NCBI GenBank assembly: GCA_965661985.1
Contig: CBFIFY010000003.1
Span: 29,207-93,206 of the forward strand
Origin: an uncultured Myxococcota bacterium
Lineage (GTDB): Bacteria; Myxococcota_A; UBA796
Length of the DNA: 64,000 nt
Direction of reading: 5' to 3'
Numbering within the stretch: position 1 is the stretch's first letter; each line of letters begins with the position of its first letter. A program made the translations under genes and the position numbers. This document shows positions 9,541-61,473 of this stretch, piece by piece. Below the pieces are notes generated by a model. That model worked only from the letters and a program-made list of their open reading frames with translations, was not told where the DNA came from and searched no databases.

Positions 9541-10516
9541 ACTTTGGTTGACTGATCACTTGTTGGGCGATTGAAACCAAATACTCTTCGACTTCGCCAC
9601 GCCAGTCCTCACCCAAATCCGATTCCACCAAAAAGTCCTGTACAGACTGGTCACCTACAGTATCCAACGCCTGAGCCAGCACAACGCTCAACTGTTCTTG
9701 AAAAGACGGCAGTTCCAATATTGCTTGGGTCGTTTGAATGACGGTTTGCACGACAAATTGAGGTTCAAAGACGGTGAACTGGTTCATCAAACGTTGATTC
9801 TCTGTCGAAAGCAACACATCCAAAACGTGTAAACGATAGAGCGCTTGTTGTGCGCGGTTTTCTGGCTTGCCAATTTCTTGTGCAGAACGACGAATGATGC
9901 TCGCAATGGACTGGTCCAAAAATTGAAGAATCTTTTGCTGGGCTTGTTGCTCAATGATTTGTGTGATTTGACCCAGTGGGCTGTTCTGAACCATTTTTTC
10001 ACCAAAGGCCTTTAGCCGACCAAAACCACCGCCCATACCTTTGGGGCGCATATTTGACGTCGCCGATGTAGCCGCTTGGGTCCACGTTTTGATGGTATCG
10101 GTAAAGTCCAATAGAACACTGGATAGCACATCGTGAAAAAGTTGCTCCATCGCATCGTGATCCATCAATTGATGAACCAGTTCAGTATCGACGGGAATCT
10201 CCTGTTGTAAAGCCTTTCGAAGTGGTTCTTGAATGCTTGTGGGAACATAATCACCCGGTGTGCCAGTTGGTACCATCGACTGCGCTTGTTCGATTTGCGA
10301 CACCAACCAACTTTGGGTCTGTTCTGATTGTACAAGGGTCTGCAAAAACAGCGTCACTTGGTTCTGAACCAACGACAGAGGCACAATATCCTTGAGGGGC
10401 TGTTGCAACAAAAAGTCCATCGTTAACCGAACGAGTTTGTTGGTCGCAGAACCATTCAACCCCTGTACAATCAACGCCACCGTTTTCAGCGTTTCAGTTT
10501 GCTCATTTGACATCAC
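9500..10516 (-). CDS. hypothetical Gln-rich helical protein, translationally coupled to the HelD-like helicase
   Basis: 338-aa ORF with no motif recognised. Its start overlaps the helicase stop by 14 nt. Its 3' end overlaps the convergent EEP gene by 41 nt. Confidence 0.6.
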   Translation of the reverse strand: MMSNEQTETLKTVALIVQGLNGSATNKLVRLTMDFLLQQPLKDIVPLSLVQNQVTLFLQTLVQSEQTQSWLVSQIEQAQSMVPTGTPGDYVPTSIQEPLRKALQQEIPVDTELVHQLMDHDAMEQLFHDVLSSVLLDFTDTIKTWTQAATSATSNMRPKGMGGGFGRLKAFGEKMVQNSPLGQITQIIEQQAQQKILQFLDQSIASIIRRSAQEIGKPENRAQQALYRLHVLDVLLSTENQRLMNQFTVFEPQFVVQTVIQTTQAILELPSFQEQLSVVLAQALDTVGDQSVQDFLVESDLGEDWRGEVEEYLVSIAQQVISQPKFTEILVEMLSVET

Positions 10517-40823: not shown

Positions 40824-40911
40824 CTGTACAACTCCCACAAATTGGTTATGAGCAGTCTATATCTCCCAATTCCCTTTCTGTAAATCTTCCCAAACCCTCT
40901 CCCTCTTTTCA

Positions 40912-43412: not shown

Positions 43413-44141
43413 ATGGATCGCCCACACAATGTGCCAAAATTACTCATCAAACTCATGCACCAGCAAAATCAGCTCTGCCCACTCACGACCGACGTTGTTC
43501 GAGTCGGCCGAAGTGAAGAGTGCGAAGTCATCTTGCCCAACGCTTCTGTGTCTCGCATTCACGCCACCATCACCAAAGAAGGTGACCGCTTCGTCATCCG
43601 AGACAACGATTCTCAAAACGGTTTTCGCATCAACGGCGAGGCATCCAAAGAACACACATTGAGTTCCGGTGATGAAATCCACTTGGGGGTATTCTCACTG
43701 GTCTTTTTAAGTGATCGATTGGAAGACAACTATTACCGTGGTCGTTCGGTCACCTATTTGCCCATCTACAATCCAAAAATCATTGAAAGCAGTGATGACT
43801 CAACCTTCGCCATGTCCACGCGGGACAAAAACTTGTTGGCTCGCAAGTCCAGTCTGCTCTATCACGGATGCATCATGAGCAAGGATGGGCGCTACTTCTA
43901 TCCCGAAGAAAATCCGCTGACCTTTGGAAAGAATGCCGTCATTTCCATCGATCACTGGTGGGTATTTGGTGTGGTCGCAGAGATCGTATGGGCCGACAAA
44001 GCTCACGTCATCAACAAACTGTCTTGGTTCTGCCCCGTCAAAGTCAACGGCAACAACGTCGATCGTGCTTTGTTGAAAGCGGGAGACAAAATTCAAATTG
44101 GCAACAATCATTTTGGGTATACCATACGCCAAGATTACTAA
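43413..44141 (+). CDS. FHA domain-containing protein
   Basis: ATG 43413 has GGAGA 7 nt upstream. VVRVGRSEECEVILPNASVSRIHATITKEGDRFVIRDNDSQNGFRINGE is a canonical FHA core. The C-terminal VKVNGNNVDRALLKAGDKIQIGNNHFGY suggests a second, degenerate FHA-like module. Confidence 0.8.
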   Translation: MDRPHNVPKLLIKLMHQQNQLCPLTTDVVRVGRSEECEVILPNASVSRIHATITKEGDRFVIRDNDSQNGFRINGEASKEHTLSSGDEIHLGVFSLVFLSDRLEDNYYRGRSVTYLPIYNPKIIESSDDSTFAMSTRDKNLLARKSSLLYHGCIMSKDGRYFYPEENPLTFGKNAVISIDHWWVFGVVAEIVWADKAHVINKLSWFCPVKVNGNNVDRALLKAGDKIQIGNNHFGYTIRQDY

Positions 44142-44202
44142 AAGTTGATTTGCGGTGCTGTCTTCTTTGGCTTCCCTTGTCTAGAAACGCTCGGATACTA
44201 GA

Positions 44203-44588
44203 GTATACCTCGCGTTTATATCCTTCGGGCATCCTTTGAATCCATCATCCACTCTCAACTTTGAAAATACGAAATTGTTGTGGGTTGCTGGGTGACTTGG
44301 GTGTTTGTTAGGCTGTTGGAAGTTGACTGGCGTTGAGGGTGACTTTGATGTTTGCGAGTGTGTCGGTATTTGGTTGGATATAGCAGTTTGTGTTTGTATA
44401 CCTCGCGTTTATATCCTTCGGGTATCCTTTGAATCCATCATCCACTCTCATCATTGAAACTACGAGATTGTTGTGGTGTGCTGGGTGACTTGGGTGCTTG
44501 TTTGTATCGGGGCTTGGGTCGAGGCAGGCGTTTTTGGTGACTTGGTTGTTGTCTAGTGTGTTGGCAGAGGGGTAGATGTAGCAGTTTG
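44203..44588 (+). repeat. two tandem ~193-bp non-coding repeat units (44203-44395, 44396-44588)
   Basis: The first ~106 nt of each unit differ at 8 positions by my count. The distal ~87 nt are more diverged but still alignable. Lies in the convergent intergenic region between the FHA and Rpn genes. Confidence 0.85.
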
Positions 44589-44791
44589 TTGTATCGATTG
44601 TTTGTCAATCAAAAGCATTGTAGAAGGCTATCAGGTTTATTGGATGGGCTTTGGTATCCAAGTGAAGTGTACAATCGTACACGAATCTGGAGAACGAAGG
44701 TCAGTCGATGAAACGGATAGCCCTTCGGCTGTGAGATTGGTATACACAGGATGGTCTCTCAATGGTTTGGAGAGGTCGGCGAGGTGTCTAT

Positions 44792-45835
44792 TTATTTTTG
44801 AACGGGGGCGGATCGAAGTTTGCCGACTTCATCTACACTCAAGCCTGTTGCTTGTGCGGTTTGTTCGTCAGAGAGTCCCATTTTGATGAGATTTTGCGCA
44901 GTTTTGATGTTGGCTTGTATCGTGCCTTCTTCTCTTCCTCTTTCGATACCCTGCTGGATACCTTCTTCTTGCCACTGTTTGATTAAATCGATCATGTTGT
45001 TCTCCGTTCTTAATTTATTGTCTAGCATTTTTGAAATGGGTTCGTTTCCTTTGTAGGTTTGGATGATGTAGAGATACATCGAGAGTAGGGTATCTCCGGA
45101 TTCTTGTCTCAACAGTATGAACTGTTCGTCAACCAGCAATCGGTCATAGAAGGACGAATGTCTGGAATATTTGAAATACTCGGCAAACTTGGCTAGCAGA
45201 AACGACTGTTGGTACTGTCTTTGAATCTCGGCATCATCGGTTTGTGAGAGGTCTCGCAAGTGGAAAGACAGTTGGGGAGAATATTGGGAACATCCCACAG
45301 GCACGTTAATCAAAGCCTGTAGGGACGTTGGGGATTTCCAAGCTTCGATGCCATTGAAGAGCACCAATGGAAACACAAAGGGCAGTTTGTCGGGAAATTT
45401 TCCGTTGTGGATGGTTTTGATGTAGTTTGAATACCATAAGTATAGATACTCGTAGAACCTCCATGCCATCGAGTGAACATCTGTCGATTGATGCTCGAAC
45501 ATAAAGTAGACATACATTTTCTCTGAGGATTTGAGTTTCAGTGACAGAAGAATGTCGGCGCGTTTCTCGTTGACCATTGGAGAGCCGAGATTGGTGGGTT
45601 CGTAGGTCAGAGAGTCCCATTTGATATTTTCGACCAGTGCTTGGGGTATTTCAGCCTGTAGATAGGCGGTGATGACCTTGGGCTTCTCCATCATGTACTT
45701 GAAAATCACATCGTGAGAGGTTTTGCCTTTGGACATTTCATCGAGAAACATTTTGTGTAGGCGTTCAAAGGTGCGTTTTTGCTCTTGTAGTCGTTTGGTC
45801 TTGTCTGGTCCTAAATTGTCTGATTCATCGCTCAT
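44792..45835 (-). CDS. Rpn-family recombination-promoting nuclease / putative transposase (PD-(D/E)XK, YhgA-like)
   Basis: The N-terminal block HDVIFKYMM...RADILLSLKL...VYFMFEHQS fits the D...E.Q nuclease core pattern. The C-terminal EEGIQQGIERGREEGTIQANIKTAQNLIKMGLSDEQTAQATGLSVDEV repeat is typical of this family. Confidence 0.8.
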   Translation of the reverse strand: MSDESDNLGPDKTKRLQEQKRTFERLHKMFLDEMSKGKTSHDVIFKYMMEKPKVITAYLQAEIPQALVENIKWDSLTYEPTNLGSPMVNEKRADILLSLKLKSSEKMYVYFMFEHQSTDVHSMAWRFYEYLYLWYSNYIKTIHNGKFPDKLPFVFPLVLFNGIEAWKSPTSLQALINVPVGCSQYSPQLSFHLRDLSQTDDAEIQRQYQQSFLLAKFAEYFKYSRHSSFYDRLLVDEQFILLRQESGDTLLSMYLYIIQTYKGNEPISKMLDNKLRTENNMIDLIKQWQEEGIQQGIERGREEGTIQANIKTAQNLIKMGLSDEQTAQATGLSVDEVGKLRSAPVQK

Positions 45836-46190
45836 GATTGCTCCATTGTGTGTTGTGAGCGAGTATGAGCAAAAAGTGTGCCAATGATAGGGTGTCGGTA
45901 GGTTCGATACTGTACGATGTTAGTTGAAAAGTTAGTCAATTGTTGGTCAATGCTTCGTCAGTAGATGGGCTACATCGTCGATAGAATCGAAAATGGATTG
46001 GTCAATTTGACTGACCAAATTGGTGAATTTTCGTCAGTTTGTTTGGTTGTGTGTAAAATACCTCAATCATTTCAAGTATTTGTGTATTTCAAAAATTGAC
46101 GAAAACACCAAGTATTGAATATTCGTCGGTTTTGGCATAGGAAAGATAAAAGATCTATCAAACATTCATCCAACGACGGAGAACAGCATC

Positions 46191-47657
46191 ATGTTGTCGA
46201 TTTTACTCACACTCACCGGTTGCATCAGTATAGACCCACCTGAGAACCCATTGGCCATCGACGATGACCGAGACGGTTACACCGAGTTTGAAGGGGACTG
46301 TAATGATCAAGACCCAAACACCTTCCCAGGTTCGGTGACGGAGGCGACATCGAATGAGTGTATGAAAGACGATGACGGTGATGGGTTTGGTGATGTGGAT
46401 GTGTCTGGGTACTTCGATGTGGGTACGGATTGCGATGACTCGAATCGGTTTATCTTTCCGGGTGCTGCAGAGAATGAGTCGGACAGTGAATGTTTGACCG
46501 ATGAAGATGAAGATGGTTGGATTGCAGAGTTAGGTGATTGTGACGATGGTGATGCTAGTACTGTTGATGACATGGATTGTGATGGTGTGTTGAGTGTGGA
46601 TGATTGTGACGATGGTGATTCGAGTATGCCGAACAATGATAATGATTGTGATGGTGTGTTGAGCGTAGATGATTGTGACGATGGTGATGCGAGTACGATT
46701 GATGACATGGATTGTGATGGTGTGTTGAGTGTAGATGATTGTGATGATGATGATTCAAGTTTATTGGAACAATCAAATGACTTGGATTGTGATGGTGTGT
46801 TGAGTGTGGATGATTGTGACGATGGTGATGCTAGTACTGTTTATGACATGGACTGTGATGGAGTATTGAGTGTAGATGATTGTGATGATGGTGATCCTCT
46901 TGTCATGGATCTTTGTATTGATATTGGAAGTCTGTCTTTTGAGGCGATGTTAATTTCAGCTGGTACCTTTACGATGGGTTGTACAAGTGAGCAGGGAACC
47001 AATTGCTACTCAAATGAGAGTCCGACACATCAAGTTACCTTGACTCAAAATTTTTATATGATGCAGACTGAAGTTACACAAGGGGTTTATGCACAAGTGA
47101 TGGGTAGTAATCCAAGTTCATTTTCTGGTTCGAACCGACCGGTTGAAAGTGTTTCTTGGTTGGATGCTATTCAATTTGCAAATGAATTGAGTGTTCAGCA
47201 AGGACTGTCTGAATGTTATGTTTTGAATGGAACCAACGTAAGTTGGTCGCAAACTGGTTGTACAGGCTGGAGGTTGCCAACAGAGGCAGAGTGGGAGTAT
47301 GCTGCAAGAGGTGGAGAAGTGTTTCAATACCCAGGAAGTAACAATCCCAGTGACGTTGCGTGGTACAACTCCAATAGTGGTTCTCAAACACACAATGTGT
47401 GTGTTTTACAGACCAACGGCTATGGTCTTTGCGATATGAGTGGTAATGTTTCGGAGTGGGTTTGGGATATTGCTGGATTGTATAGTGGTGCATCACTTGT
47501 AGATCCGAGAGGTGCATCGAGTGGTTGTTGCCGAGTATTAAGAGGTGCTGGTTATAATCGACCTGTAGATCATATGAGAGTTTCAAAGCGTGGAAACACT
47601 AGTGGATCGAATATTGCTTCTTATAGAGGTTTTCGTCTTTGTCGTAATCCCAACTAA
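46191..47657 (+). CDS. lipoprotein with tandem Asp/Cys-rich (MopE-like metal-binding) repeats and C-terminal FGE/SUMF1-fold domain
   Basis: Lipobox LTLTGC. Five units of DCDGVLSVDDCDDGDAST.DDM. The C-terminal blocks FTMGCT, PTHQVTL, SWLDAIQFAN, RLPTEAEWEYAARGG, GNVSEWVWD and RVLRGAGY, and the terminal FRLCRN, are FGE-sulfatase family blocks. Confidence 0.85.
   Translation: MLSILLTLTGCISIDPPENPLAIDDDRDGYTEFEGDCNDQDPNTFPGSVTEATSNECMKDDDGDGFGDVDVSGYFDVGTDCDDSNRFIFPGAAENESDSECLTDEDEDGWIAELGDCDDGDASTVDDMDCDGVLSVDDCDDGDSSMPNNDNDCDGVLSVDDCDDGDASTIDDMDCDGVLSVDDCDDDDSSLLEQSNDLDCDGVLSVDDCDDGDASTVYDMDCDGVLSVDDCDDGDPLVMDLCIDIGSLSFEAMLISAGTFTMGCTSEQGTNCYSNESPTHQVTLTQNFYMMQTEVTQGVYAQVMGSNPSSFSGSNRPVESVSWLDAIQFANELSVQQGLSECYVLNGTNVSWSQTGCTGWRLPTEAEWEYAARGGEVFQYPGSNNPSDVAWYNSNSGSQTHNVCVLQTNGYGLCDMSGNVSEWVWDIAGLYSGASLVDPRGASSGCCRVLRGAGYNRPVDHMRVSKRGNTSGSNIASYRGFRLCRNPN
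46536..46895 (+). repeat. in-frame tandem coding repeats (~66-75 bp units, about 5 copies)
   Basis: The protein reads DCDDGDASTVDDM-DCDGVLSVD-DCDDGDSSMPNNDN-DCDGVLSVD-DCDDGDASTIDDM-DCDGVLSVD-DCDDDDSSLLEQSNDL-DCDGVLSVD-DCDDGDASTVYDM-DCDGVLSVD-DCDDGD. The nucleotide units are near-identical. Confidence 0.9.
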
Positions 47658-47802
47658 GTATTTTGTATATCTACGACATTTGGGGTTTGATTTGGTTTGT
47701 GCTTTTATGAGATTCTACATTTGCTCGACTAAAGTAATGTGAGTCGATTTAGAGAGTACTGGAACTTCAAATCAAAAAAATGTACTTCTGTACTCAAATT
47801 CA

Positions 47803-47884
47803 GTATAGGTCTCTTTCATATCATCCACTCTCATCATTGAAACTACGAGGTTGTTGGATGTTGCTGGGTGACTTGGGTGTGTTC
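47803..47884 (+). repeat. third, truncated copy of the 44.2-kb repeat core
   Basis: ATCATCCACTCTCATCATTGAAACTACGAG.TTGTTG......TGCTGGGTGACTTGGGTG is shared with 44444-44500. Same orientation, again in a convergent intergenic region. Confidence 0.8.
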
Positions 47885-47904
47885 AAGTGTATCTAGGACT
47901 GGTG

Positions 47905-49431
47905 TTAGTCGCCCGCCAGTTCACATCGATCGCCAACATCATCTCCATCGGCGTCGCTCTGGTAATCTTCAAAGATGCCAGTGTGGACAGGAGACAAAAT
48001 GAGGTCGGTGATCGGCTCCCCATTTTCTGTGAGGCGAAAGAACATGCCCCATCCACCACCGTTGTCGTGTACTTGGGTGAGGATGTAATTCCAACCGGCG
48101 TCGAGATTGGATGGGAAAGTGTATTTGTCTACACTGGCGCCTTGACAGGTTTGAGATTCTCCCACAAATGTGCCGTTGACCCAGACTCGACCTGCGTCGT
48201 CCGGACCAAACTTTACATCGACGCTTCGAGCATTGTCGCTGTAAACCCAGATGCCGGCAAACACGTTGCGCGCAGGAGAGAGGTCTTTGATTCCGATAAT
48301 TGTGTTGTAATCAATTCGACTGCCACCACTTTCATAGAGAGACCAATAAACGGTGTCTTCATTGTAATTGAGCAAGGTGTTGTACAGGGATGGAATGATG
48401 CTGGTTTCTGTGATTTCGTAGATGTTGTCGACGGTTTGACAGTTGCCTGTTTGTAGAGCGTTGACATTGTGGCCATCGGTCAGCACCCACGTTCGAAAGA
48501 AGCCGTCTTCATCGGGAGCGAATTCGATAGGACCGTTGTTGCTGTGCAACGGACAGTTGTCTTCTTCATCAATCAGTCCATCGTCATCATCGTCTTCGTC
48601 GCAGTTGTTGGCAAATGTGTCGCCGTCAACATCTTCGGTTTCGGTTAAGATTGGGTCTATCAAACTGCAACTGTCTGGCTGAATTTCCCATTCAAGGGTG
48701 TACTCTTCTACGGCTGTGCCGAATAGTCCCTGAAGGCAAAAGGTGGTTTCTGTCTCTGTGCTACTGGTCAAATATCGGGCACTGCTGTCGTTGATGGGTT
48801 CAATTGTGGGGCAACTGTCGTCGATGGGTAGATCGGACGCGACTTCAACTCCGTCTTCCAAAATGCTGATTCGCATGAGGTGAGAGCAAATTTCTTGGTC
48901 TGGGTTGACGGTGAATTCAATGTATTCATTCTCTTCAAAATCAAAGGTGTAGCAGTCTGTGTCTTGCTCCCACAACATCCCTCGAAGTGACCCACTGTCA
49001 GCCAACACCGTTGCCGTCAGATTGCTGTCGTTTGGTTCCATTTCAAACGTGCCATCTTCAACAGCGCAATCTTCGTCGCAACCATCAACGTTCCAGAGAT
49101 TGCTGTCGTCGCATTCCTCTGTGGAATCGAGTATGCCATCCCCACATTTGGGCAACAAACAGTCTGTGCGACAGGCATCTGCGACATTGGCGTTGTTCTC
49201 ACCGTCATCGCACTCTTCAAAGGGAGCGTTGACGATACCGTCTCCACATTCACCGACGATGTCCTCTGTGGGCTCAGCAGTATCTTCGCTTCCAGTATCC
49301 TCAGTGGCATCTGAAGTATCCGTGGTCACCGTGTCATTTTCTACATTGTCTTCTTTGGTATCACCACATGCACTGCTGAGTGAGAGCAGTAGGCTGAGTG
49401 CTGTCAAATTCATCCAAACAGGGGAAGCCAT
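47905..49431 (-). CDS. mosaic exported protein: two myxobacterial Cys-rich repeats, PPC-like domain, TSP3-like Asp repeats, C-terminal beta-sandwich
   Basis: Lipobox LSLSSAC. CGDGIVNAPFEECDDG and CGDGILDSTEECDD, then EMEPNDSNLTA (PPC-type), then DVDGDTFANNCDEDDDDDGLIDEEDNCP and DADGDDVGDRC. An alternative ATG at 49413 would form an ATGA overlap with the DUF1501 stop. Confidence 0.7.
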   Translation of the reverse strand: MASPVWMNLTALSLLLSLSSACGDTKEDNVENDTVTTDTSDATEDTGSEDTAEPTEDIVGECGDGIVNAPFEECDDGENNANVADACRTDCLLPKCGDGILDSTEECDDSNLWNVDGCDEDCAVEDGTFEMEPNDSNLTATVLADSGSLRGMLWEQDTDCYTFDFEENEYIEFTVNPDQEICSHLMRISILEDGVEVASDLPIDDSCPTIEPINDSSARYLTSSTETETTFCLQGLFGTAVEEYTLEWEIQPDSCSLIDPILTETEDVDGDTFANNCDEDDDDDGLIDEEDNCPLHSNNGPIEFAPDEDGFFRTWVLTDGHNVNALQTGNCQTVDNIYEITETSIIPSLYNTLLNYNEDTVYWSLYESGGSRIDYNTIIGIKDLSPARNVFAGIWVYSDNARSVDVKFGPDDAGRVWVNGTFVGESQTCQGASVDKYTFPSNLDAGWNYILTQVHDNGGGWGMFFRLTENGEPITDLILSPVHTGIFEDYQSDADGDDVGDRCELAGD

Positions 49432-50678
49432 TCGTCTACCTCAAATCCAGTGACAATCGGATGGTTGCTCAGACCGGCAATGTCTCTAAGGGCAGCGTGC
49501 ACATGCCCTGCAGTCAAAAATGTACCGTTGGGGTCAATTTCCAAGGTCTCTGGATTGACCGCCAGTGGCAGTTGATCCATGTCTGTGCCACCGATGACTC
49601 GACCACCTTGAATGTCAGAGCCCATGAACATCATTGAGCCAATGGACCAGTGATCTTTTCCATTGCCATCGTTGTAATACGGGGTGCGCGCAAAGTCAGA
49701 CCCAGCAATGACGTTGAATCGGTCTGCAATGCCCAATCGTTCGGCTTCTTGTCTGGCGAATGCCATGGCTTGTGCAACACGCAACAATCTAGGCGTGTGA
49801 TTGTTGTCGTGGTTGTTGTGGGTGTCAAACCCACCTATAGAGACGTTTGCGCTGACCGATACGCCTGCAGCAAAGCACGCCAAGGCAACTTGAATCTGAC
49901 GTTCCAGATCATCTTCGCGAAGTTCTGTCGGCATCGCCGCAACCAAGGATTGGAGTTCAGAATTGTCAGACTGCACCAATTCCAATACCTGTATGGAGTT
50001 GAGGGTTCGGGGCAAGTGGCTTTGACTTTGCACACGTCCCAGTCGGGCTGCGCGAGCCGCGTGAACCTTTTCTTGGACAGTGTTCGGCAAAAACAAGGAC
50101 TCGGGGTTGCTACTGTCTCGTCGATCTGGGTAGGCAAGGTCTTGCAACGTGTTGGTGCTGGGCAGACGGGTCACTGGCACAAGTCCATTGGTGCTGTCGT
50201 AGCCTCCGTTGCTGATGAAGGCCAGTGATGGCGCACTTTCTACTGCACCTGCAACCAACGCTGAAAATGCCGGTCTATTAGGATCTGTGTGTCCACTCCA
50301 CGTCGCACGCACACCTTGTTCGTGGCCATTGGTGCCAACGTCAATTCCGTTGATCACCAACAGTTCATTTTGAAACTCTGTGTAAAAATTTTCCAGTCCG
50401 TCGATTGGGGGAACCAAAAAGTTGCCCACTTCCAAAATTTCATCGGTGAAGTAGGTATTGATCGGTGCCACTTCAGTTTCGTTGGCTCGACCTTTGGGGT
50501 CACAAATCATGGTGGGGTCCCAGCCACCAGAGGCGTGGATGGTCAACCAAAAGGTACCGTTGTATCGGACTTGTTCTTGAGCATGGGCTTTTCGAATGGG
50601 AGACCATCCTGTGAGTGCCGACGGTACCAACAGTCCAGTTCCAGCAATGCGAAGGAAGCTTCTTCTTGAAAGGGTCAT
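49410..50678 (-). CDS. DUF1501 family protein, TAT-exported (second copy)
   Basis: Twin-arginine signal MTLSRRSFLRIAGTGLLV. Also SGGWDPT, GGFDTHNNHDNNH and SDFARTPYYNDGNGKDHW. Paralog of 16018-17289. Confidence 0.8.
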   Translation of the reverse strand: MTLSRRSFLRIAGTGLLVPSALTGWSPIRKAHAQEQVRYNGTFWLTIHASGGWDPTMICDPKGRANETEVAPINTYFTDEILEVGNFLVPPIDGLENFYTEFQNELLVINGIDVGTNGHEQGVRATWSGHTDPNRPAFSALVAGAVESAPSLAFISNGGYDSTNGLVPVTRLPSTNTLQDLAYPDRRDSSNPESLFLPNTVQEKVHAARAARLGRVQSQSHLPRTLNSIQVLELVQSDNSELQSLVAAMPTELREDDLERQIQVALACFAAGVSVSANVSIGGFDTHNNHDNNHTPRLLRVAQAMAFARQEAERLGIADRFNVIAGSDFARTPYYNDGNGKDHWSIGSMMFMGSDIQGGRVIGGTDMDQLPLAVNPETLEIDPNGTFLTAGHVHAALRDIAGLSNHPIVTGFEVDEWLPLFG

Positions 50679-50698
50679 ATCAATTCTCAGTCGGAGGG

Positions 50699-53014
50699 TT
50701 ATTCAAACAAAAAGTTGTAATCGGAGAGCAAGTAGACCATCACCCCACGCCATGCGCGAATGGTGAAGTCAGGATCGATGGCCAGTTGAAGTTCGGAAGG
50801 GAGATCGGTTCCTGTAATTGGATCTTGGACTCCCCGACAGCTGTACGTCATATAGGTACTCACTTCATCGGCTTCAATGAGTGCCTTTCCTTCAGTGTGC
50901 AGTTCCAACCAGAGATCGTACACTGCCAATACCTCAGGATCGTTGAGGCGTAATTCTTGTCCCAGTACTCGATAGAATAGATACTGAATGTTTTGCTTCA
51001 TGCGCTCTTGAACTTCTGGAATGGCAAATCCATCTTCGGTGTACGGTTCGTAGGAACTTTCTACGTATGGAAAGAGTCGGCGTTGATTGATGGGCAGAAC
51101 AAAGTCGGCACTGGTGGCTTTGCAGGCTACAGTGTTTGCCATTCTGAGTGCCACAGCACCGATGACACCGTTTGGTTCTTTGAGGCGCTGAACCACATCG
51201 TCACTGTCAATACCACCGTAGAGCAGTTTGTAATCGTCCAACAAAAAGTCACTGTTGCGGTCACCCCATCGATAACCCGTGACGGCAATAATTTGCTGGT
51301 TCAGTTCTTCTGGGGTCAACAAGCGCGCCGTTCCAGCCATCATCAGTTCGGCTTCAGATGCATTTTCATGATCGACTGCGCGATAGAACTTGGACAGCAA
51401 CACCTCACGAATTGGGATTTTTACATCCCAGCCACTTTCCATAAATTCATTGCTGACACGGTTGAAGAAGGCGTCTTGTTGTCTCCACGCTTCGTATTCT
51501 ACAGAATCTGTAGACCACTCGTATCCACGGAGGACGTCCAGTCCAGTGAACGCGTGGAACACTTGCTCAACTGTGGAACGTGCAAATCTTGGATCTTCAT
51601 AGGTTCTTTCTGCCAGCCAGCGCAGTGCATTGCCACTTTCGGTGATGGAGATGGTTTCTCCAGCGAAACCAGGTTCGTACATTTCTGCAAACCAACCCGT
51701 CTCAGGTGGATTGTAATGCCCACTGTTGTCCCAGTTTTGAAACGCGCCAGCGACGGGTTCCATCACAGAGTGACAGACGTTGCACTGAGGATCGTTCATC
51801 GTGGGGTTGTGGATGGCTGAATTGTCTGCATCGATGGGTCGATCTGCCAAAGACAAAATGTTGGTGTTCAAAAAGTATTCATAGAATACTTTCGATCGAT
51901 GTCGATTTCGGTTGGTATCGGTGGTTGGATAGCGATTCATGAAGGCCACGGAACTCAACAGACCCACCTGTGGTTGTGCGTCAAAGTCAACTGGATAGAA
52001 AATGTCGCTCTGTGGGTCGTCTATGTCTGGCGTGACAAAACGGTCGTCGCTCACACCGTAGGACATGGCAGACCAAGAGTTCATCATCGTATAATCGGCA
52101 GTCAGAATCGTGCCCCAGTGTAGGTCTTCCATGAAGACGTGGCGCATCAGTTCCAACGGTTCTCTAGCGATGGAACTGTTGACTTTGGTACGGCGATTGT
52201 TGCCCGGGTCGTTGTTGATGCTGTACCAATAGAGATTGGGGAACTTGTCATAGTCCATGCTTTGGATGGCCGTTTGACCTTGCATGTACTTATCGGTCAG
52301 CAATAGGTCATTCCACAGTGTGACCAATCGATCGGAAATCAAGGATTTGGTGTTGTCTGGATAGCCAATCTCTGTTCCATCGAGCAATTCTGTGAGCACA
52401 CGTTTGAGACCTGGCTCTCCTTCTTGCTCAACTTTGGCAAGGTGAGAGGGGGATGGCAAGGTACCCAACAAGTTGAGGGTAACTTTTCTCAGCGTTTCTT
52501 TGGGCGTGGCCAGTACCAAATCACTGCTTTCCACGCGAACATTTTCATCCCCAGGACACTCTTCGACTGGGTTCTCCAAGCGATCCACAAAGCCAACCAG
52601 TGCACTGTATGCAGGGGAATCTTCGGTGATGACTCTGCCGCCACCGTGCCCATCGAGTCCCAAGGGTTTGCGCAGAACCAGTGGGATGTCGTCGATTTCC
52701 AGTCTGGCGACATAGTGCAGTTCAGCGCTGTTGGTCTCCAAATAGCCTGGAAGGACGTTGGATTGCAATACAAGGTCGCTGTGTTGAGCTGCCCCAGTAG
52801 AGTTGTGACAGGAATAGCACACTGGACTCAGTGCTTCTCCCCAGACTTTCTGTTCAAAATAATCGGCGTCATTGACACATCCGTCGATTTCTTCTTCTGT
52901 CAAGTCCCCGGTGTCTTCAGTCTCTTCAGAGACGTCAACAACCGTATCTTCATTGGAATCCGGTGTTTTGGGTTCGCCTTGGCAGGCCACTAACCAGAGT
53001 GCGATGGGCATCAT
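50699..53014 (-). CDS. multi-domain DUF1587/1592/1588-type di-haem lipoprotein (planctomycete PSCyt/PSD-like)
   Basis: ATG 53014 gives MMPIALWLVAC, which contains a lipobox. The N-terminal CYSCHNSTGA motif and the central DPQCNVCHSVMEPVAGAFQNW motif are both present. LTADYTMMNS and TDTNRNRHRS are collinear with ORF 17300-18934. Confidence 0.75.
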   Translation of the reverse strand: MMPIALWLVACQGEPKTPDSNEDTVVDVSEETEDTGDLTEEEIDGCVNDADYFEQKVWGEALSPVCYSCHNSTGAAQHSDLVLQSNVLPGYLETNSAELHYVARLEIDDIPLVLRKPLGLDGHGGGRVITEDSPAYSALVGFVDRLENPVEECPGDENVRVESSDLVLATPKETLRKVTLNLLGTLPSPSHLAKVEQEGEPGLKRVLTELLDGTEIGYPDNTKSLISDRLVTLWNDLLLTDKYMQGQTAIQSMDYDKFPNLYWYSINNDPGNNRRTKVNSSIAREPLELMRHVFMEDLHWGTILTADYTMMNSWSAMSYGVSDDRFVTPDIDDPQSDIFYPVDFDAQPQVGLLSSVAFMNRYPTTDTNRNRHRSKVFYEYFLNTNILSLADRPIDADNSAIHNPTMNDPQCNVCHSVMEPVAGAFQNWDNSGHYNPPETGWFAEMYEPGFAGETISITESGNALRWLAERTYEDPRFARSTVEQVFHAFTGLDVLRGYEWSTDSVEYEAWRQQDAFFNRVSNEFMESGWDVKIPIREVLLSKFYRAVDHENASEAELMMAGTARLLTPEELNQQIIAVTGYRWGDRNSDFLLDDYKLLYGGIDSDDVVQRLKEPNGVIGAVALRMANTVACKATSADFVLPINQRRLFPYVESSYEPYTEDGFAIPEVQERMKQNIQYLFYRVLGQELRLNDPEVLAVYDLWLELHTEGKALIEADEVSTYMTYSCRGVQDPITGTDLPSELQLAIDPDFTIRAWRGVMVYLLSDYNFLFE

Positions 53015-53163
53015 GTTTGTACCTTGGAAAAATGATCGTAACTCACAATTAGTATAACGTATGTCACATTGCTTTGTGGACAGGATCGACCATTTGAGAC
53101 AAATGTTGAATCCCACAATCAATAGTCTATGTAGAAGGCTATTTTTCAGTTGTCGCGTCTACG

Positions 53164-56060: not shown

Positions 56061-57266
56061 TCACCGTTGGTCGGGTGCATCTTTCCAATTGATCGCATTG
56101 AGCCGCTTCGCTTGATGCCGCAGAAGTTCATTGTCAGACGACAGCGCCTCTTGTACAAAGATGGCATTGCGAGGACGTAGGCGCGCAGAGGCTTCCAACA
56201 GGGCCAAGTTCCAGTTGAGTTCGCTTTGGTTTTCACAATACAAGCGATGGCTGTTGCCCAAAAAAGAAATCTTATGACACTTTGGCGGTATAGACACAGA
56301 GACCCACAAATCACTCTCCAAGTCCATGCCACGAGGATGCTCGCGTTTTGTACACGGTTTCGAAGACCACTGTTTTGCCCTGTTTGACCAATTGCTCAAA
56401 TATTGAACAGGGTTTTCACACCATCGAAGCGTTTCTACGGCATATTGGTTTTGCCAGTGTCCAATTAAGAAATGTGGTGTGTCATCGGTGAATTGTTGCC
56501 CCTGTTCGTACAAGGTTTGTACACTTTTGGCATAGAAGTGCTCTAGGAGATCTTGCTCAAACCCTTCGGTCAGTCTGTCACTTTGTAAGAGTGCTGTGGA
56601 AACTTTCGCATACCAGTCTGCATCGGATGTGTGTGGTGCGCTGTCTTTGGCGAGGGTGGTCACGAGGTGCATCCAACAAGATTTTTGAAATTGGTCGCTG
56701 AACTTGCAGACGGTCAGTCCTTGTTCAAGTGTGTCGATGGATGAAGGCAAGGACTCGGCAAGGGTGAAAAAGCACTCTGCTTGCCAAGTACGGTTCTCGA
56801 TGTGTCGACACGCGTCGATGGCCAACGCCACATCTTCCTGTCCATCGGCGACTGCCTGTGCGGTCCAACAGGTGTTGGGGTGTGGGTCCAAGGTGCAATC
56901 ACGCTCTGTGATGGGTTCGCTATTTTGGATTTGGTCGAAGTGGTTGATTTGGTCTTTCCACAAATGGGGGCGTTCGGTCAATCGGTGACAACGGTCTCGT
57001 CCAAGTGAAGTAGACAGGAATGCACAAAGGTCTTTACTGCGCCTTGGGTATTGTTCTACCGTTTCCAAGATGAGGACATCCCTTTGAACTTGCTCTAAAT
57101 TTTGCACATAACGCTTGGCTTGTACTGGACTGTTCTGTGCCAGATTGATCAACGCTTCACTCGAGTGTTTGGTTTCTGTTTCAAGAGTCGACGGTGTTGA
57201 AAGTGGATCGCAACCACCAAATAGAAACAGTGTGTACAGAACTGTTTGAAAGAACGATTGACGCAT
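56061..57266 (-). CDS. hypothetical Cys-rich helical lipoprotein
   Basis: Lipobox LFLFGGC, 401 aa, many conserved-looking Cys/Trp residues. No family recognised. Confidence 0.6.
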   Translation of the reverse strand: MRQSFFQTVLYTLFLFGGCDPLSTPSTLETETKHSSEALINLAQNSPVQAKRYVQNLEQVQRDVLILETVEQYPRRSKDLCAFLSTSLGRDRCHRLTERPHLWKDQINHFDQIQNSEPITERDCTLDPHPNTCWTAQAVADGQEDVALAIDACRHIENRTWQAECFFTLAESLPSSIDTLEQGLTVCKFSDQFQKSCWMHLVTTLAKDSAPHTSDADWYAKVSTALLQSDRLTEGFEQDLLEHFYAKSVQTLYEQGQQFTDDTPHFLIGHWQNQYAVETLRWCENPVQYLSNWSNRAKQWSSKPCTKREHPRGMDLESDLWVSVSIPPKCHKISFLGNSHRLYCENQSELNWNLALLEASARLRPRNAIFVQEALSSDNELLRHQAKRLNAINWKDAPDQR

Positions 57267-57287
57267 ATGGACTCAATGGGGTAGAAT
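57258..57287 (+). promoter_or_regulatory. putative sigma70-type promoter giving a leaderless mRNA for the CRTAC1-like gene
   Basis: TTGACG (57258-57263), 18-nt spacer, TAGAAT (57282-57287), then 6 nt and the ATG at 57294. No SD is possible in this space. Confidence 0.4.
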
Positions 57288-57293
57288 TACAGT

Positions 57294-57323
57294 ATGATAG
57301 CGTTCCTCCTCATGGCTTGTCAA
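57294..57323 (-). promoter_or_regulatory. putative divergent sigma70-type promoter for gene 56061-57266
   Basis: The minus strand reads TTGACA (57323-57318), 18-nt spacer, TATCAT (57299-57294). The -10 element is the reverse complement of the ATG-containing hexamer of the plus-strand gene. Confidence 0.35.
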
Positions 57324-59090
57324 CAAGAGTTTACCGACGTATCCTACACGGAAGCAGAGTTGATTCCCGCTTTTGAGCACGGGAACTCAGGGTGGGCTGG
57401 GGTCGCGCTGCTGGACTATGATGGTGATGGTTGGTTGGACATTTTCTTCACCAACGGCCTAAGTCAAGCGGATGCACTTTATCAAAACCAAGGGAATGGA
57501 CAATTCTTGAATGTTGCAGCCGAGGTTGGGTTGGATTCTACGGCTCAACACGGTGGAGTGGCCTCAGCAGATTTGGACAATGATGGAGACCCCGATTTGG
57601 TGATCGTGCGAGACTGTACCTTGGGCACCTTACAAGAAGATGGGACGGCTTTGCGCGACGGTGGTGTTGAGGTTGCGTGGAATGAAGATGGCACATTCGT
57701 TTTTGAAATGCTGACTTTTAAAGAGCAAGCGGCCGAACTTGGCATTTGTCCAGTGAGTGTGGAATTGGTTGATACCAACGGGGATGGGTGGCTCGACATT
57801 TCAGTGTCCAATGGATTGGATTTGGATCAGGTGTACCCTTGGATCTATCGAAAGGAGACCCGAGAAGGGGTGGATGTGATTTTGCTTTCGGATCAAGAAG
57901 GTGGGTTTGAACAAAGGGTGCTGTTGGAACCTACACCTGTGGGCGATGTGCTCAATCCCGATGAGTATGAATTTCAGTTTGCGACGTTTACATCAGCGTT
58001 TATGGATATCAATTTTGATGGTCTGTTGGACAAAATATCTGGCTATGGTGGTGGACCACTTGGCATTCACTTACAAGTAGAAGAGAACGTGTTTCAACCG
58101 GTACCAGAATGGACGACCAGTGTCCAAGGACTGTGGATGGGGCTTGCGCTGGCAGACTTTGATGGGGATGGAGACATCGACATATACAGTACCAACCAAG
58201 GATTGTCTCCACTTTTGACGGGATATGACAACATTCCAGAACCTTTTGAAGGAGAGACCTTCTCCGAAGCATGGATCGATCGAAATGTTAGACCCTTTCA
58301 CACAATATTTGAAAATGATCGTGGGTTCTTCAGCGAACGAAATGCCGATGTTCAAGCAGAGCATTTGTTGTCAGGCGATTTGTTTGATGGTGTCCCAACA
58401 GCAGATGGATACAAGTATCAAGGCTGGTTGAATCCAGAAGGACTGGATCGATACGGTTGGGCTTGGGGGGCGACGACCATTGATATCGATGCCGACGGTT
58501 GGATGGACGTTGTATTCAATGCCAACAATTGTGCTGCACCAATGACAATCGTTGGAGACGAGAGTGCAGGGGCTGGTCCAGGTTCGGTGTTGCGAAACAA
58601 TGTGGGCAACGGTTTTCAAGATGTGACTTGGAAATGGGGTTTGGCAAACGTCATGAACGATGGAACCTATCCAGATGGCAGAGGGGTGGCAGTTGGAGAT
58701 TTGAATAACGACGGCTATTCTGACATCGTCTATGCAAATCGAACCTTCAATCCCTCTCAGTCGTCGCCCTTGGATCAGCAACCCGGCATTCCCAAAATTT
58801 TGCTGTCTGAAGGTCAACCGGGGAATTGGTTGCAAATTGATTTGGTGGGTTCACAGAGCAACCGTGACGGGATTGGTTCATACATCCGAATTCAAAATGG
58901 CGATCGTACCCAGTTCTATCTTTTTGAACCTGGGGGTACGACCAACTCAAGCAATGAACGGTTGTTTACTGTGGGGGTTGGAAGTGCTAGAAAAGTTGAT
59001 GTCGCGGTTTTGTTTCCGTCTGGAAAACAGATACGATTAAACAGTGTAGACAGCAATCAGCGCATTGTGATTGAGGAGAATAGAGAATGA
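57294..59090 (+). CDS. CRTAC1-family lipoprotein (FG-GAP/VCBS repeats + ASPIC/UnbV domain), second copy
   Basis: Lipobox FLLMAC. DYDGDGWLDI, DLDNDGDPDL, DTNGDGWLDI, DFDGDGDIDI, DIDADGWMDV and DLNNDGYSDI. C-terminal NRDGIGSYIRI...VGVGS...VLFPSG. Confidence 0.85.
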   Translation: MIAFLLMACQQEFTDVSYTEAELIPAFEHGNSGWAGVALLDYDGDGWLDIFFTNGLSQADALYQNQGNGQFLNVAAEVGLDSTAQHGGVASADLDNDGDPDLVIVRDCTLGTLQEDGTALRDGGVEVAWNEDGTFVFEMLTFKEQAAELGICPVSVELVDTNGDGWLDISVSNGLDLDQVYPWIYRKETREGVDVILLSDQEGGFEQRVLLEPTPVGDVLNPDEYEFQFATFTSAFMDINFDGLLDKISGYGGGPLGIHLQVEENVFQPVPEWTTSVQGLWMGLALADFDGDGDIDIYSTNQGLSPLLTGYDNIPEPFEGETFSEAWIDRNVRPFHTIFENDRGFFSERNADVQAEHLLSGDLFDGVPTADGYKYQGWLNPEGLDRYGWAWGATTIDIDADGWMDVVFNANNCAAPMTIVGDESAGAGPGSVLRNNVGNGFQDVTWKWGLANVMNDGTYPDGRGVAVGDLNNDGYSDIVYANRTFNPSQSSPLDQQPGIPKILLSEGQPGNWLQIDLVGSQSNRDGIGSYIRIQNGDRTQFYLFEPGGTTNSSNERLFTVGVGSARKVDVAVLFPSGKQIRLNSVDSNQRIVIEENRE

Positions 59091-60505
59091 AATCCTATGT
59101 TCAAATGATTGGTGTGCTCACTTTAATGGCTTGTGAAACCGTAGAGACTGAAACGGCCCAACCACTTGAAAACTCCGAATGGAAAGATACGATCACCACG
59201 AAAGATGTGGGTGCAGACGTTGTTTTTTCGACAGCCAAAGAGTGTGGTGAGTGTCACCCTTCGCATCTCCAAGATTGGGAACAGTCGATGCATGCCTACG
59301 CTGCCCATTCGCCTGTATTTGATGCGATGGCACAAAAAGCCTTTCGAGATTCAGCTGGAGAAGTCGGTACATTTTGTACGAGTTGTCACTCTCCCATTGG
59401 TGCGATTCAAGGGGAAGATGGTACGGTGACGGCAAAGGACCGTTCAGAAATCTCACGGGATTCGGTTTCTTGTGAAGTGTGTCATTCGGCGGTCGATCAT
59501 TCTACGCCAGTTGGAAATTTATCACTGGAACTGACAGCAACCGGTGAGATTATGGGACCGTATGAGAGTGACTTTACCGAAGGTCATGAAAGTGTGCAGA
59601 GTGATTTCGTTCAATCTGCTGAATTGTGTGGTTCTTGTCACGATGTATTCAATTATCCCGGACTGCGAATTGAAGAGGCTTTTACAGAGTACTCAACTTC
59701 TCCCGCCAAAAATATGGGGCTGACCTGTCAGGATTGTCATATGGGAACCGTTCCTGGAGCAGTGTCTCAACGTGATGTTGGTCCGATAGCCGTTGTTGAA
59801 GGTCGTACCTATCCAGACAGAGCGCGCTCTTCGCATCGATTTATTGGTCCCGATTATTCTTTGCTGGATACATTTCCATACCCAGACGACATCGAGAAAT
59901 CTCGTCAAGCACAAGAAGAGATGTTTGCTCAAATTGAGGTGCTGTTGAAAAATGCGGTTGAAGTATCGGAGGTGCAAATAGATCGCTCTGGTGTCGAAAC
60001 GACCGTGCAGGTCACATTGCAATCCTTGACATCTGGCCACAATGTTCCGACAGGCTTTACATCCGAGCGTCAGTTGTGGTTGGATGTGATCGTCAAGAAT
60101 GCTGTCGGCACAGTCTTGTTTTCCAGTGGTCAGTTGGATGGGAATGGAGACCTTTACGATGAACATTCTTGGGAAGTGGCTGCAGATTCGACCAAACTGG
60201 ATACACAGTTGGTCAATCTTCAGTCCAAAAATAAGATGCGCTATGGTGAGTTGGAGTTGCCAAATGCAACAGAGACCGTCTTTCCATTTGATGCCGATTA
60301 CATTGAAAAGCATTCGTTGAGACCTTTGGAAACAAGAACGGTATCCTATACCTTGCCTGCATCTATTGGTCAGCAAACCATTCACGTTGAAGTTGCTTTG
60401 CGCTATCGAAACCTGCCGCCCTACATTCTACGGGCTTTACAACTGGACGATTTGGTAGATCGACTGCAAGTGTTTACCATTGATGAAACTGCGATAGAAG
60501 GATGA
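59087..60505 (+). CDS. penta-haem c-type cytochrome lipoprotein
   Basis: Lipobox LTLMAC. Five CxxCH motifs: CGECH, CTSCH, CEVCH, CGSCH, CQDCH. ATGA start/stop overlap with the CRTAC1-like gene. Confidence 0.85.
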   Translation: MKSYVQMIGVLTLMACETVETETAQPLENSEWKDTITTKDVGADVVFSTAKECGECHPSHLQDWEQSMHAYAAHSPVFDAMAQKAFRDSAGEVGTFCTSCHSPIGAIQGEDGTVTAKDRSEISRDSVSCEVCHSAVDHSTPVGNLSLELTATGEIMGPYESDFTEGHESVQSDFVQSAELCGSCHDVFNYPGLRIEEAFTEYSTSPAKNMGLTCQDCHMGTVPGAVSQRDVGPIAVVEGRTYPDRARSSHRFIGPDYSLLDTFPYPDDIEKSRQAQEEMFAQIEVLLKNAVEVSEVQIDRSGVETTVQVTLQSLTSGHNVPTGFTSERQLWLDVIVKNAVGTVLFSSGQLDGNGDLYDEHSWEVAADSTKLDTQLVNLQSKNKMRYGELELPNATETVFPFDADYIEKHSLRPLETRTVSYTLPASIGQQTIHVEVALRYRNLPPYILRALQLDDLVDRLQVFTIDETAIEG

Positions 60506-60606
60506 CCCTGCATTGCCTTCGAACTTTCTGATAAGTAGGGTATATTGATGGTATCAGTGTTCGTCCATAGTTACAATAGTTGCAGCATTGATGTGGTGGA
60601 GGCAAC

Positions 60607-61473
60607 ATGATGTGGTGGATTTGGGCGTGTGCAACGGAGCCTGCAGACACCAGCGTTGAATCGTATGCCGTTCCAGAACTTCAAGAAAATGGGTGCGGTA
60701 CAGGTCAAGGTTCGGGCTTGCCAATTGGTGACATAGAATGCAACAATGGACGATGTACCATTGCCCCTGGAGAGTTTTGGATGGGATCGTCAGACGTTGA
60801 TGCAGAGTGTCCCGTGCGAAAAGTTGAACTGTCAGAGTTTCAAATTGATCAATATGAGGTCACTTTGTCCGAATGGCAACGGTGTGTCGATCAAGGACGG
60901 TGTGCTTCTTTGCCGGCACATTGTCTCAATACGTTGTACAGCAGACCTGATTACAGCGTTGATTTTCCAGCCATTTGCGTCACTTGGTCTCAAGCCAACA
61001 ATTATTGTCGTGGCATAGGTGGTCGTTTACCGACAGAGGCAGAGTGGGAAAAAGCCGCTTCTGGAACGGAAGGTGCCAAGTGGGCGTGGGGAGCTTCTGC
61101 GCCTGACTGTGACGATGCCAACTTTCGCTTGGCCAGCATCTATTGCTCTCCAGGGGTTCGATCTGTTGGGTGGTATACTCAAAGTGTCTCTCCCTTTGGG
61201 TTGTATGATGTCAATGGCAATGTTTTTGAGTGGACAGCCGATTGGTATGATGCCACCTTTTATGAAGCGGCTACAAATATCAATCCCATCAAAGAATCTG
61301 GTTTGTGCGTTTCTAGTGTGGGTGCTGAACCTCAGGACTGTGGAGAGCGAGTCTTGCGCGGTGGAGCTTACAACGCGACAGAATCGACAATTCGAAATGC
61401 AGCTCGAAGTTTCGCGGACCCAACGTTGGTGGATGTGAACATTGGTTTTCGCTGTGCCTACGATGGCAATTGA
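60607..61473 (+). CDS. FGE/SUMF1-fold (formylglycine-generating enzyme family) lipoprotein
   Basis: Lipobox WIWAC. FWMGSS, PVRKVELSEFQIDQYEVT, RLPTEAEWEKAASG, GNVFEWTADWY, RVLRGGAY and FRCAY. No C-x4-C catalytic pair near the C-terminus. Confidence 0.85.
   Translation: MMWWIWACATEPADTSVESYAVPELQENGCGTGQGSGLPIGDIECNNGRCTIAPGEFWMGSSDVDAECPVRKVELSEFQIDQYEVTLSEWQRCVDQGRCASLPAHCLNTLYSRPDYSVDFPAICVTWSQANNYCRGIGGRLPTEAEWEKAASGTEGAKWAWGASAPDCDDANFRLASIYCSPGVRSVGWYTQSVSPFGLYDVNGNVFEWTADWYDATFYEAATNINPIKESGLCVSSVGAEPQDCGERVLRGGAYNATESTIRNAARSFADPTLVDVNIGFRCAYDGN

Follow-up and report, generated by a model that had tools for sequence, protein, structure and literature searches.

In a 64,000-nt stretch of DNA from an uncultured Myxococcota bacterium (assembly GCA_965661985.1, contig CBFIFY010000003.1, positions 29,207 to 93,206 of the forward strand; hereafter, the window), three consecutive genes on the + strand encode a CRTAC1-like putative lipoprotein with an FG-GAP/VCBS beta-propeller and a C-terminal UnbV_ASPIC domain (57294..59090, 598 aa), a predicted pentahaem c-type cytochrome lipoprotein of the PHC fold (59087..60505, 472 aa), and a Cys-rich, single-domain putative lipoprotein of the FGE fold (60607..61473, 288 aa). 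We see an even chance that they constitute one conserved operon-type cassette of exported, lipid-anchored proteins that work together, most likely in one extracytoplasmic complex. A functional link within the trio, FGE-fold protein included, is well supported and a physical link is probable, because the pair of propeller and cytochrome genes is conserved, the arrangement was found on three further contigs and the same folds have been fused independently. CRTAC1/ASPIC/UnbV proteins are widespread in bacteria; to our knowledge, no function has been established for them, and our literature searches likewise returned none.

The original prediction, made from the DNA letters alone, had described the first two genes as overlapping in an ATGA, had assigned five CxxCH motifs to the second product and had placed an FGE-fold gene lacking the catalytic Cys pair 101 nt downstream. 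The open reading frames and the sequence agree with all of this: the ATG of the cytochrome gene (59087-59089) is shared with the TGA of the propeller gene (59088-59090) within the ATGA at 59087-59090, the motif count is exactly five, and the spacing, together with an alignment to Streptomyces FGE, bears out the description of the third gene. A GAGGAG ribosome-binding site for the cytochrome gene, read from the sequence (59073..59078, + strand), falls within the 3' end of the propeller gene, with 8 nt between it and the cytochrome ATG. The FGE-fold gene has its own GGAGG (60598-60602) within the 101-nt intergenic spacer (60506..60606, + strand) that separates it from the cytochrome gene; most orthologous cassettes overlap by 4 nt at this point.

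The three genes are maintained together

A scan with a cytochrome profile, using one genome per species, yielded 56 loci, and their open reading frames were searched with the window proteins; a locus was considered testable when its contig reached far enough. The loci whose cytochrome reached 45% identity came from Myxococcota-type metagenome-assembled genomes (MAGs), some with placeholder NCBI names. The nearest genome match was an uncultured Myxococcota MAG (L004), in which the cytochrome is 90% identical and synteny extends over the whole block. The propeller gene was directly upstream of the cytochrome gene in all 15 of these loci that were testable, usually with a 4-nt overlap, and the FGE-fold gene was also adjacent in 15 of 15, mostly downstream, with upstream positions in L001/L011 and L013 and copies on both sides in L014. 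Flanking genes were unrelated from one cassette locus to the next. In the reverse test, starting from the propeller, three independent long contigs (41-45% identity) contained propeller, cytochrome and FGE-fold genes in this order, with 4-nt overlaps and amid unrelated flanks, so the co-occurrence check indicates that the adjacency is not unique to this genome. The original prediction had treated the FGE-fold gene merely as one that follows; its membership in the link is well supported.

Contig sizes pointed in the same direction. Among the top homologue clusters, the longest contig was of the same size for 31 cytochrome/propeller pairs, 33 cytochrome/FGE pairs and 14 triples, and for 23 pairs in the remaining comparison of the three homologue lists. 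The pairwise distance matrices of the three proteins were correlated (r 0.83-0.86, with 0 of 2000 permutations as high) and their mean divergence was similar (0.49-0.53), indicating that the cassette is inherited as a unit.

Some loci depart from the common layout. FGE-fold genes flank the pair in L014, an extra 512-aa FG-GAP/UnbV gene lies upstream in L061, and the MAG SRP216583_co1_147 (L010 with L020 and L047) apparently carries two cassettes, of which one is split or chimeric as assembled. Several of the source MAGs came from marine water-column and activated-sludge samples, habitats that, judging from the sample names, would be oxic.

Three CRTAC1-family genes of the nearest outgroup (L062, L063 and L064) had no cytochrome neighbour and lie in another, recurring context. 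In L062, from Pseudoalteromonas sp. JBTF-M23, and in L063, the CRTAC1-family gene is preceded by an Aminotran_3 gene and followed by a PRAI gene; a VCPO_2nd-like gene lies nearby in L062 and L064, the latter also with a radical SAM gene. The context of these outgroup genes may be biosynthetic.

The propeller resembles binding scaffolds

The open reading frame, Pfam and an AlphaFold2 model concur on the nature of the first product. It matches FG-GAP_3 four times (E 5e-35, 120 bits) and UnbV_ASPIC at its C-terminus (27.4 bits, cut-off 23.4), and it adopts a CRTAC1 fold in a confident model (predicted local distance difference test score, pLDDT, 88.6; predicted template modelling score 0.92), all of which assigns it to the CRTAC1/ASPIC-UnbV family. 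The top Foldseek match was murine CRTAC1 (9etn; E 1e-23, template modelling (TM) score 0.61/0.66), followed by integrin alpha and ITFG2, and galactose oxidase matched only at a TM score of 0.3. The nearest folds of the model are all binding scaffolds.

The propeller orthogroup comprises approximately 98 clusters with 37-97% identity and at least 326 bits, and proteins outside it score at most 202 bits. Within the group are conserved the lipobox Cys, C108 and C152, which probably form a disulfide as far as can be predicted, and many DxDxDG Ca2+ motifs, in addition to a set of invariant residues (WMG, Y298/T300/N301/S305, W389/W391, R463 and R483). The orthogroup alignment contained neither a His or Cys cluster nor conserved redox-cofactor ligands, with a single near-invariant His. 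The original prediction had inferred an electron-transfer role from the tie to a multihaem cytochrome: the functional link of an ASPIC/UnbV protein to such a cytochrome stands, given the 15 of 15 loci, the three contigs and the fusions, whereas a role of the propeller itself in electron transfer finds no support in its conserved residues, which include no redox-cofactor ligands, or in its match to binding scaffolds.

Vertebrate CRTAC1 carries an EGF-like domain after its UnbV_ASPIC domain. The cassette propeller and murine CRTAC1 share the FG-GAP Ca2+-binding repeats and the C-terminal UnbV_ASPIC domain, but they are only 15% identical, and the bacterial protein has a lipobox and lacks the C-terminal EGF-like domain. 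Unlike the rest of the CRTAC1 family, it belongs to a separate orthogroup marked by its cytochrome partner.

Literature searches for the combination of propeller, cytochrome and FGE-fold protein retrieved only one study, on the evolution of anammox, in which the CRTAC1-family gene is mentioned in passing (PMC12758564). There, a 'CRTAC1 family' FG-GAP gene lies between the homologues of hydrazine synthase alpha and beta-gamma in non-anammox Planctomycetota, Syntrophobacter and Paludibaculum; the gene order is reported, with no function for the CRTAC1-family gene (PMC12758564). Those clusters resemble the cassette in placing a CRTAC1-family gene among genes for periplasmic c-type haem proteins, some of cytochrome c554 type, and differ from it in that the cassette partner is a PHC and not a hydrazine-synthase homologue. 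We found no HZS_alpha domain in the cassette or its scanned neighbours, and only in a distant locus, L028. The cassette, its distribution and its fusions therefore appear to be undescribed in the literature searched.

The cytochrome belongs to the PHC fold and has a rebuilt haem-2 pocket

Besides its open reading frame, profile and Foldseek searches define the 472-aa protein. Cytochrome_C554 (E 3.6e-10) and other multihaem Pfam models match it, and it carries five CxxCH motifs in all, at residues 53, 97, 129, 181 and 214 (region 59243..59740, + strand; motifs at 59243-57, 59375-89, 59471-85, 59627-41 and 59726-40), whereas neither of the other two proteins has any. All five are kept without exception in 17 homologues and across 58 loci, and the only Cys residues of the protein are those of the five motifs and the lipobox. 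A profile of the 17 homologues matched PDB 5ze8, the low-potential pentahaem cytochrome c552 of Thermochromatium tepidum, over its whole length in four collinear stretches (E 2.8e-10), and also 9wt8, the Geobacter ExtKL selenoprotein MccSep. The AlphaFold2 model (pLDDT 69 overall) consists of helices in residues 50-288 and strands in residues 291-471, this C-terminal beta domain being modelled at pLDDT above 85, and 5ze8 was its sole strong Foldseek match (E 4.4e-12). The protein thus has the five CxxCH motifs within a helical domain and an Ig-like beta-sandwich with a G-H-x-x-P-x-G loop, and it is a member of the PHC fold (the c552/MccSep/ExtKL superfamily), with a predicted N-terminal five-haem helical cap and a C-terminal Ig-like domain. 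Since neither partner shows a recognisable redox-metal site, it is predicted to be the only evident redox carrier of the three.

MccSep is a pentahaem selenoprotein polysulfide reductase from Geobacter sulfurreducens (GSU2936-37, PDB 9wt8); its active site is haem 2, with His and Cys239 as ligands, into which selenocysteine Sec325 reaches from the Ig-like loop GHSIPDGU (bioRxiv 10.1101/2025.11.18.688581). The cassette cytochrome is similar in size (approximately 450 aa) and has the same five-haem helical cap, Ig-like domain and G-H-x-x-P-x-G loop at the haem-2 pocket, as well as several conserved distal His residues. However, in the corresponding loop (GHNVPTGFTSERQLW, 60035..60079, + strand), Phe324 aligns with Sec325; it is invariant in the cassette clade and kept in all but a few of the 58 loci. 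The segment with Cys239 falls in an insertion absent from the cytochrome, or is aligned to Ala198, and the score against the NCBIfam ExtKL model (NF040886) was 48.7 bits, far below the curated cut-off of 250. For these three reasons, we rejected membership in the MccSep family. Other differences from MccSep are the insertion bearing His250, present in neither c552 nor MccSep, the predicted lipoprotein nature of the cytochrome, its obligatory linkage to propeller and FGE-fold genes, and its hosts, which are Myxococcota-type MAGs instead of anaerobic Desulfobacterota and Nitrospirota.

Cytochrome c552 is the best whole-length match in both structure and profile, including its pHAMPTG loop, with 17% identity; unlike the cassette cytochrome, it retains a Cys in the segment that matches MccSep Cys239 and has no reported propeller or FGE partner. 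It has no known function itself, and the PHC family has been tied to ExtKL and c552 and possibly to archaeal cytochrome nanowires (PMC11976967).

Universal over the 58 loci are, in addition to the five motifs, His69, His167, His250, His318, Glu196, Met219, the loop PTG and Arg328. A fifth extra His, His138, occurs only in the cassette clade.

The FGE-fold protein lacks the FGE Cys pair

Pfam FGE-sulfatase (PF03781) matches residues 51-284 of the 288-aa product (E 3.6e-45), placing it in the FGE fold, and the open reading frame and alignments complete its description. The Cys pair of FGE is absent (RGGAYNATES---TIRNAARS compared with RGGSYLCHDSYCNRYRVAARS of Streptomyces FGE): the copper-binding C-x4-C before the RxAARS motif is deleted or replaced, and none of 17 orthologues has a Cys there. 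The orthogroup has instead 12 invariant Cys and three nearly invariant ones, with no invariant His.

Scores against NCBIfam families were far under the respective cut-offs for EgtB (68.5 against 360), SenA (72.8 against 420) and PvdO (40.6 against 500). The best match was GldK/PorK (TIGR03525; 90.8 against 350), limited to the C-terminal 150 residues, and PorK structures in the PDB were also matched. Considering these scores and the missing Cys pair and His ligands, we rejected a true FGE, EgtB/OvoA/SenA, PvdO and GldK as identities. EgtB has an N-terminal DinB-type domain with an iron site, unlike the cassette protein, which is a single 288-aa domain. PvdO (5hha), PorK/GldK (9ots) and CalU17 (7ml6), non-catalytic or non-FGE members of the fold, are, like it, exported and without the FGE Cys pair, and PorK/GldK are also lipoproteins; what sets the cassette subfamily apart from them is a distinct pattern of 12 invariant Cys and the pairing with a cytochrome.

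The match to CalU17, from the calicheamicin enediyne cluster (PDB 7ml6/6vqp), had an E-value of approximately 1e-12. UnbV, in UnbV_ASPIC, is named after a gene of enediyne clusters, and the FGE and UnbV_ASPIC folds may also meet there.

The same folds are fused to distant relatives of the cytochrome

An exhaustive profile search recovered 5683 representative proteins with the PHC cytochrome fold, of which 645 matched with E 1e-30 or better. In P0461, six FG-GAP repeats are N-terminal to a five-haem PHC in a single protein, after which another FG-GAP gene follows; the FG-GAP part of P0461 shows only repeat-level similarity to the window propeller, indicating that the fusion is independent in origin. 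P0444 combines FGE-sulfatase, PHC, beta-helix and dockerin domains in one protein. Other PHC fusions among the long proteins scanned involve beta-helix (6 of 55), dockerin and PKD/RCC1 propeller modules, and in L027 there is a 4-nt overlap between a separate FGE gene and a PHC-beta-helix-dockerin gene. Rosetta stone arrangements of this kind support the view that the FG-GAP and FGE folds are both directly linked in function to the cytochrome.

The Planctomycetota locus L028 (Planctomycetota bacterium ARS1434, NZBC01000254.1, 1-17162) has a PHC besides an HZS_alpha+FGE fusion, and a distant CRTAC-like gene in it overlaps a PHC-like one; the locus thereby links the three folds of the cassette to hydrazine-synthase-like haem proteins. 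The overlapped PHC-like gene has four CxxCH motifs, and the locus also contains a haem-less PHC paralogue and a 1805-aa cytochrome protein with PD40, two HZS_alpha and F5_F8 domains.

Planctomycete relatives of the cytochrome (29-36% identity) showed no link to the propeller orthogroup and were near other multihaem, Fe-S and signalling genes. In most of these loci (L019, L021-L023, L026, L030, L032-L033, L035-L043, L048-L050, L052, L055, L058 and L059), the five-haem PHC gene is followed by one for a paralogue of approximately 550 aa without CxxCH (at about 7500-11500 in most). The divergent neighbour in L037, L048 and L058 is a conserved 739-740-aa gene, in L058 a Pyr_redox_2+AIRS (SelD-type) fusion, which hints at selenium or sulfur chemistry.

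Expression signals and other features of the window

The propeller gene starts at 57294 and a divergent gene at 57266, leaving a 27-nt gap across which promoter-like hexamers stand back to back. On the + strand, TTGACG-18-TAGAAT (57258..57287) agrees with the consensus at 10 of 12 positions; its mirror on the - strand (57323-57294), serving the divergent gene, is likewise a consensus match only. This layout suggests putative overlapping divergent promoters in 57267-57323, and the position of the + strand site suggests that transcription may start at about the propeller ATG, possibly giving a leaderless mRNA. No convincing terminator after the cassette or internal promoter was found in a scan for these elements. 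The next gene after the cassette is convergent and ends 54 nt away.

The original prediction had also reported a second CRTAC1-like gene next to a CDF metal exporter and a second FGE-fold gene, and had concluded that, over 25 kb, the families come back in varying combinations. Pfam supports both genes. The former (38976-40838, - strand) encodes FG-GAP_3 and UnbV_ASPIC domains and overlaps the Cation_efflux (CDF) gene by 11 nt; this lipoprotein gene and the downstream CDF gene span positions 37934-40838 of the - strand. The latter, an FGE-sulfatase gene at 46191-47657, encodes a Cys-rich 488-aa product with repeated DCDD segments. The recurrence holds at the level of domains, but the copies are only distant paralogues: the second CRTAC1-like protein matches the cassette propeller at 45 bits, a repeat-level similarity, and the second FGE-fold protein is 31% identical to that of the cassette over 158 aa. 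We thus rejected them as close paralogues of the cassette genes.

Positions 44000-48000 differ in composition, with a change of sign in GC skew near 44 kb and a GC content that falls to 0.42-0.44, and a YhgA-like transposase gene (44792-45835) lies in the same stretch as the second FGE-fold gene; the region may be an acquired island. At 49410-53122 (- strand), a DUF1501 gene adjoins a PSCyt3/PSD1/PSD4 gene. This pairing is typical of Planctomycetota, which makes it noteworthy in a Myxococcota-type contig.

Discussion

The reading of the three genes as one cassette of co-working, exported proteins has to be weighed against several observations. The physical complex itself, together with lipid anchoring, the direction of electron flow and the division of labour, is what we infer from the data above. 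All three families keep the lipobox Cys without exception, and their orthologues carry canonical lipoprotein signals. However, the signal peptides of the propeller (MIAFLLMAC) and of the FGE-fold protein (MMWWIWAC) are very short in this genome, at only 8-9 residues, and without a basic residue. Both open reading frames begin directly after an in-frame stop. For the start of the propeller gene (57294-57314), a relative with 97% identity, P0121, gives a different picture: it is called as a 592-aa protein, as if starting at Met7, and such a start would entail loss of the signal peptide; the exact 598-aa product had no copy in the protein collection searched. The distal ligand of haem 2 is not assignable from sequence, with four universal extra His and the clade-specific His138, and this ambiguity leaves two options for the cytochrome, a pure all-bis-His wire and an enzyme in which one haem is special. 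The propeller may also contain a cofactor derived from post-translational modification. Finally, we sought further conserved neighbours (porin, electron donor and maturation genes) among the cassette loci and found none shared.

If the proteins do work together, a plausible sequence of events can be outlined. Translational coupling would yield three lipid-anchored proteins in fixed proportion, and the pentahaem cytochrome would move electrons between periplasmic carriers and a substrate. The rebuilt haem-2 pocket, with Ala198, Phe324 and the insertion bearing His250, may do chemistry, while the Ca2+-binding propeller and the disulfide-rich FGE-fold protein would hold the substrate or a partner at the cytochrome, in a binding or scaffold role. 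In its most specific form, this becomes a new class of extracytoplasmic heterotrimeric oxidoreductase, in which propeller and FGE-fold protein provide the substrate site and the remodelled pentahaem cytochrome supplies or removes electrons, a proposal that we put forward tentatively and regard as doubtful.

Catalysis could reside elsewhere in the trio. The propeller might be a dehydrogenase or oxidase with the cytochrome as its dedicated electron acceptor or donor, after the model of quinoprotein dehydrogenase-cytochrome pairs, cytochrome cd1 or hydrazine-synthase-like propellers; this account, the closest to the idea of the original prediction, seems unlikely to us. It would explain the conserved order and translational coupling of propeller and cytochrome, the existence of an FG-GAP+cytochrome fusion, the five extra His, nearly invariant in the trio clade as fits an all-bis-His wire, and the block of subfamily-invariant propeller residues (from the WMG motif to R483), and CRTAC1-family genes do lie between haem-containing hydrazine-synthase homologues in other phyla (PMC12758564). 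Nevertheless, the propeller conserves no His/Cys cluster or known cofactor motif, only C108/C152 and Ca2+ motifs, its nearest folds are non-enzymatic scaffolds, with galactose oxidase as distant as stated above, and conservation in the cytochrome is highest in a segment that corresponds to the active-site loop of an enzyme. That last segment, a loop PTGF..ER kept from Myxococcota to Planctomycetota, argues instead for the cytochrome as an MccSep-type reductase of polysulfide, selenite, another small oxyanion or peroxide, acting at haem 2 with partners that deliver or bind the substrate. The homology to MccSep/ExtKL and to c552, the latter thought to be active in sulfur metabolism (bioRxiv 10.1101/2025.11.18.688581; PMC11976967), is in keeping with such a reductase, as are the presence in the wider family of only four universal extra His for five haems, the usual pattern of catalytic multihaem proteins, and the SelD-type fusion gene adjoining some planctomycete homologues. 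We also hold this to be improbable, because both essential MccSep residues are gone (Cys239 to Ala198, Sec325 to Phe324), the ExtKL score misses its cut-off widely, and MccSep comes from anaerobes, whereas several of our MAGs come from water-column or sludge samples.

Three further readings are less probable still. The trio might form a cell-surface adhesion or extracellular electron-transfer structure, with a conductive cytochrome related to nanowires and with the propeller and a PorK/GldK-like lipoprotein anchoring it or binding surfaces. A link between the PHC fold and the AvECN nanowire subunit has been described (PMC11976967), GldK/PorK was the best NCBIfam match of the FGE-fold protein, along with PorK structures, and dockerin, beta-helix, PKD and RCC1 modules, typical of surface proteins, occur in fusions with relatives of the cytochrome; yet no porin, secretion or polymerisation genes are conserved beside the cassette, the lipobox of the cytochrome favours a membrane anchor over a filament, and the GldK score falls well short of its cut-off, leaving this structure quite improbable. 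We consider it very improbable that the FGE-fold protein is a maturation enzyme modifying the propeller or the cytochrome, as FGE modifies sulfatases: its family does comprise protein-modifying and thiol-chemistry enzymes and its gene is always adjacent to the other two, but the copper-binding Cys pair is deleted, no His is conserved, and both the FGE+cytochrome fusion and the like divergence of the trio better fit a structural subunit. An incidental adjacency, with a shared operon in this genome only, is hardly credible. ATGA overlaps are common in bacterial operons and alone prove nothing; what exceeds chance is the conservation of the overlap across loci, and the trio is kept down to 41-57% identity in unrelated flanks, with independent fusions besides.

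Under the reading of one cassette of co-working proteins, its conserved, translationally coupled and sometimes fused cytochrome is a concrete lead on the function of the bacterial CRTAC1/ASPIC family, and gives this family its first solid functional partner. The PHC family, whose known members come from a purple sulfur bacterium and anaerobes that respire sulfur, is found here in Myxococcota-type MAGs with its Cys/Sec chemistry lost, and its cytochrome fold emerges as a module that has repeatedly recruited propeller, FGE-fold, beta-helix and dockerin partners. Being small, secreted and without transmembrane segments, the three proteins are realistic subjects for co-expression and structural work. 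If the heterotrimeric oxidoreductase proved true, it would provide the first biochemical function for the bacterial CRTAC1/ASPIC/UnbV family and would make FG-GAP and FGE-fold modules recurrent partners of this cytochrome fold across phyla.

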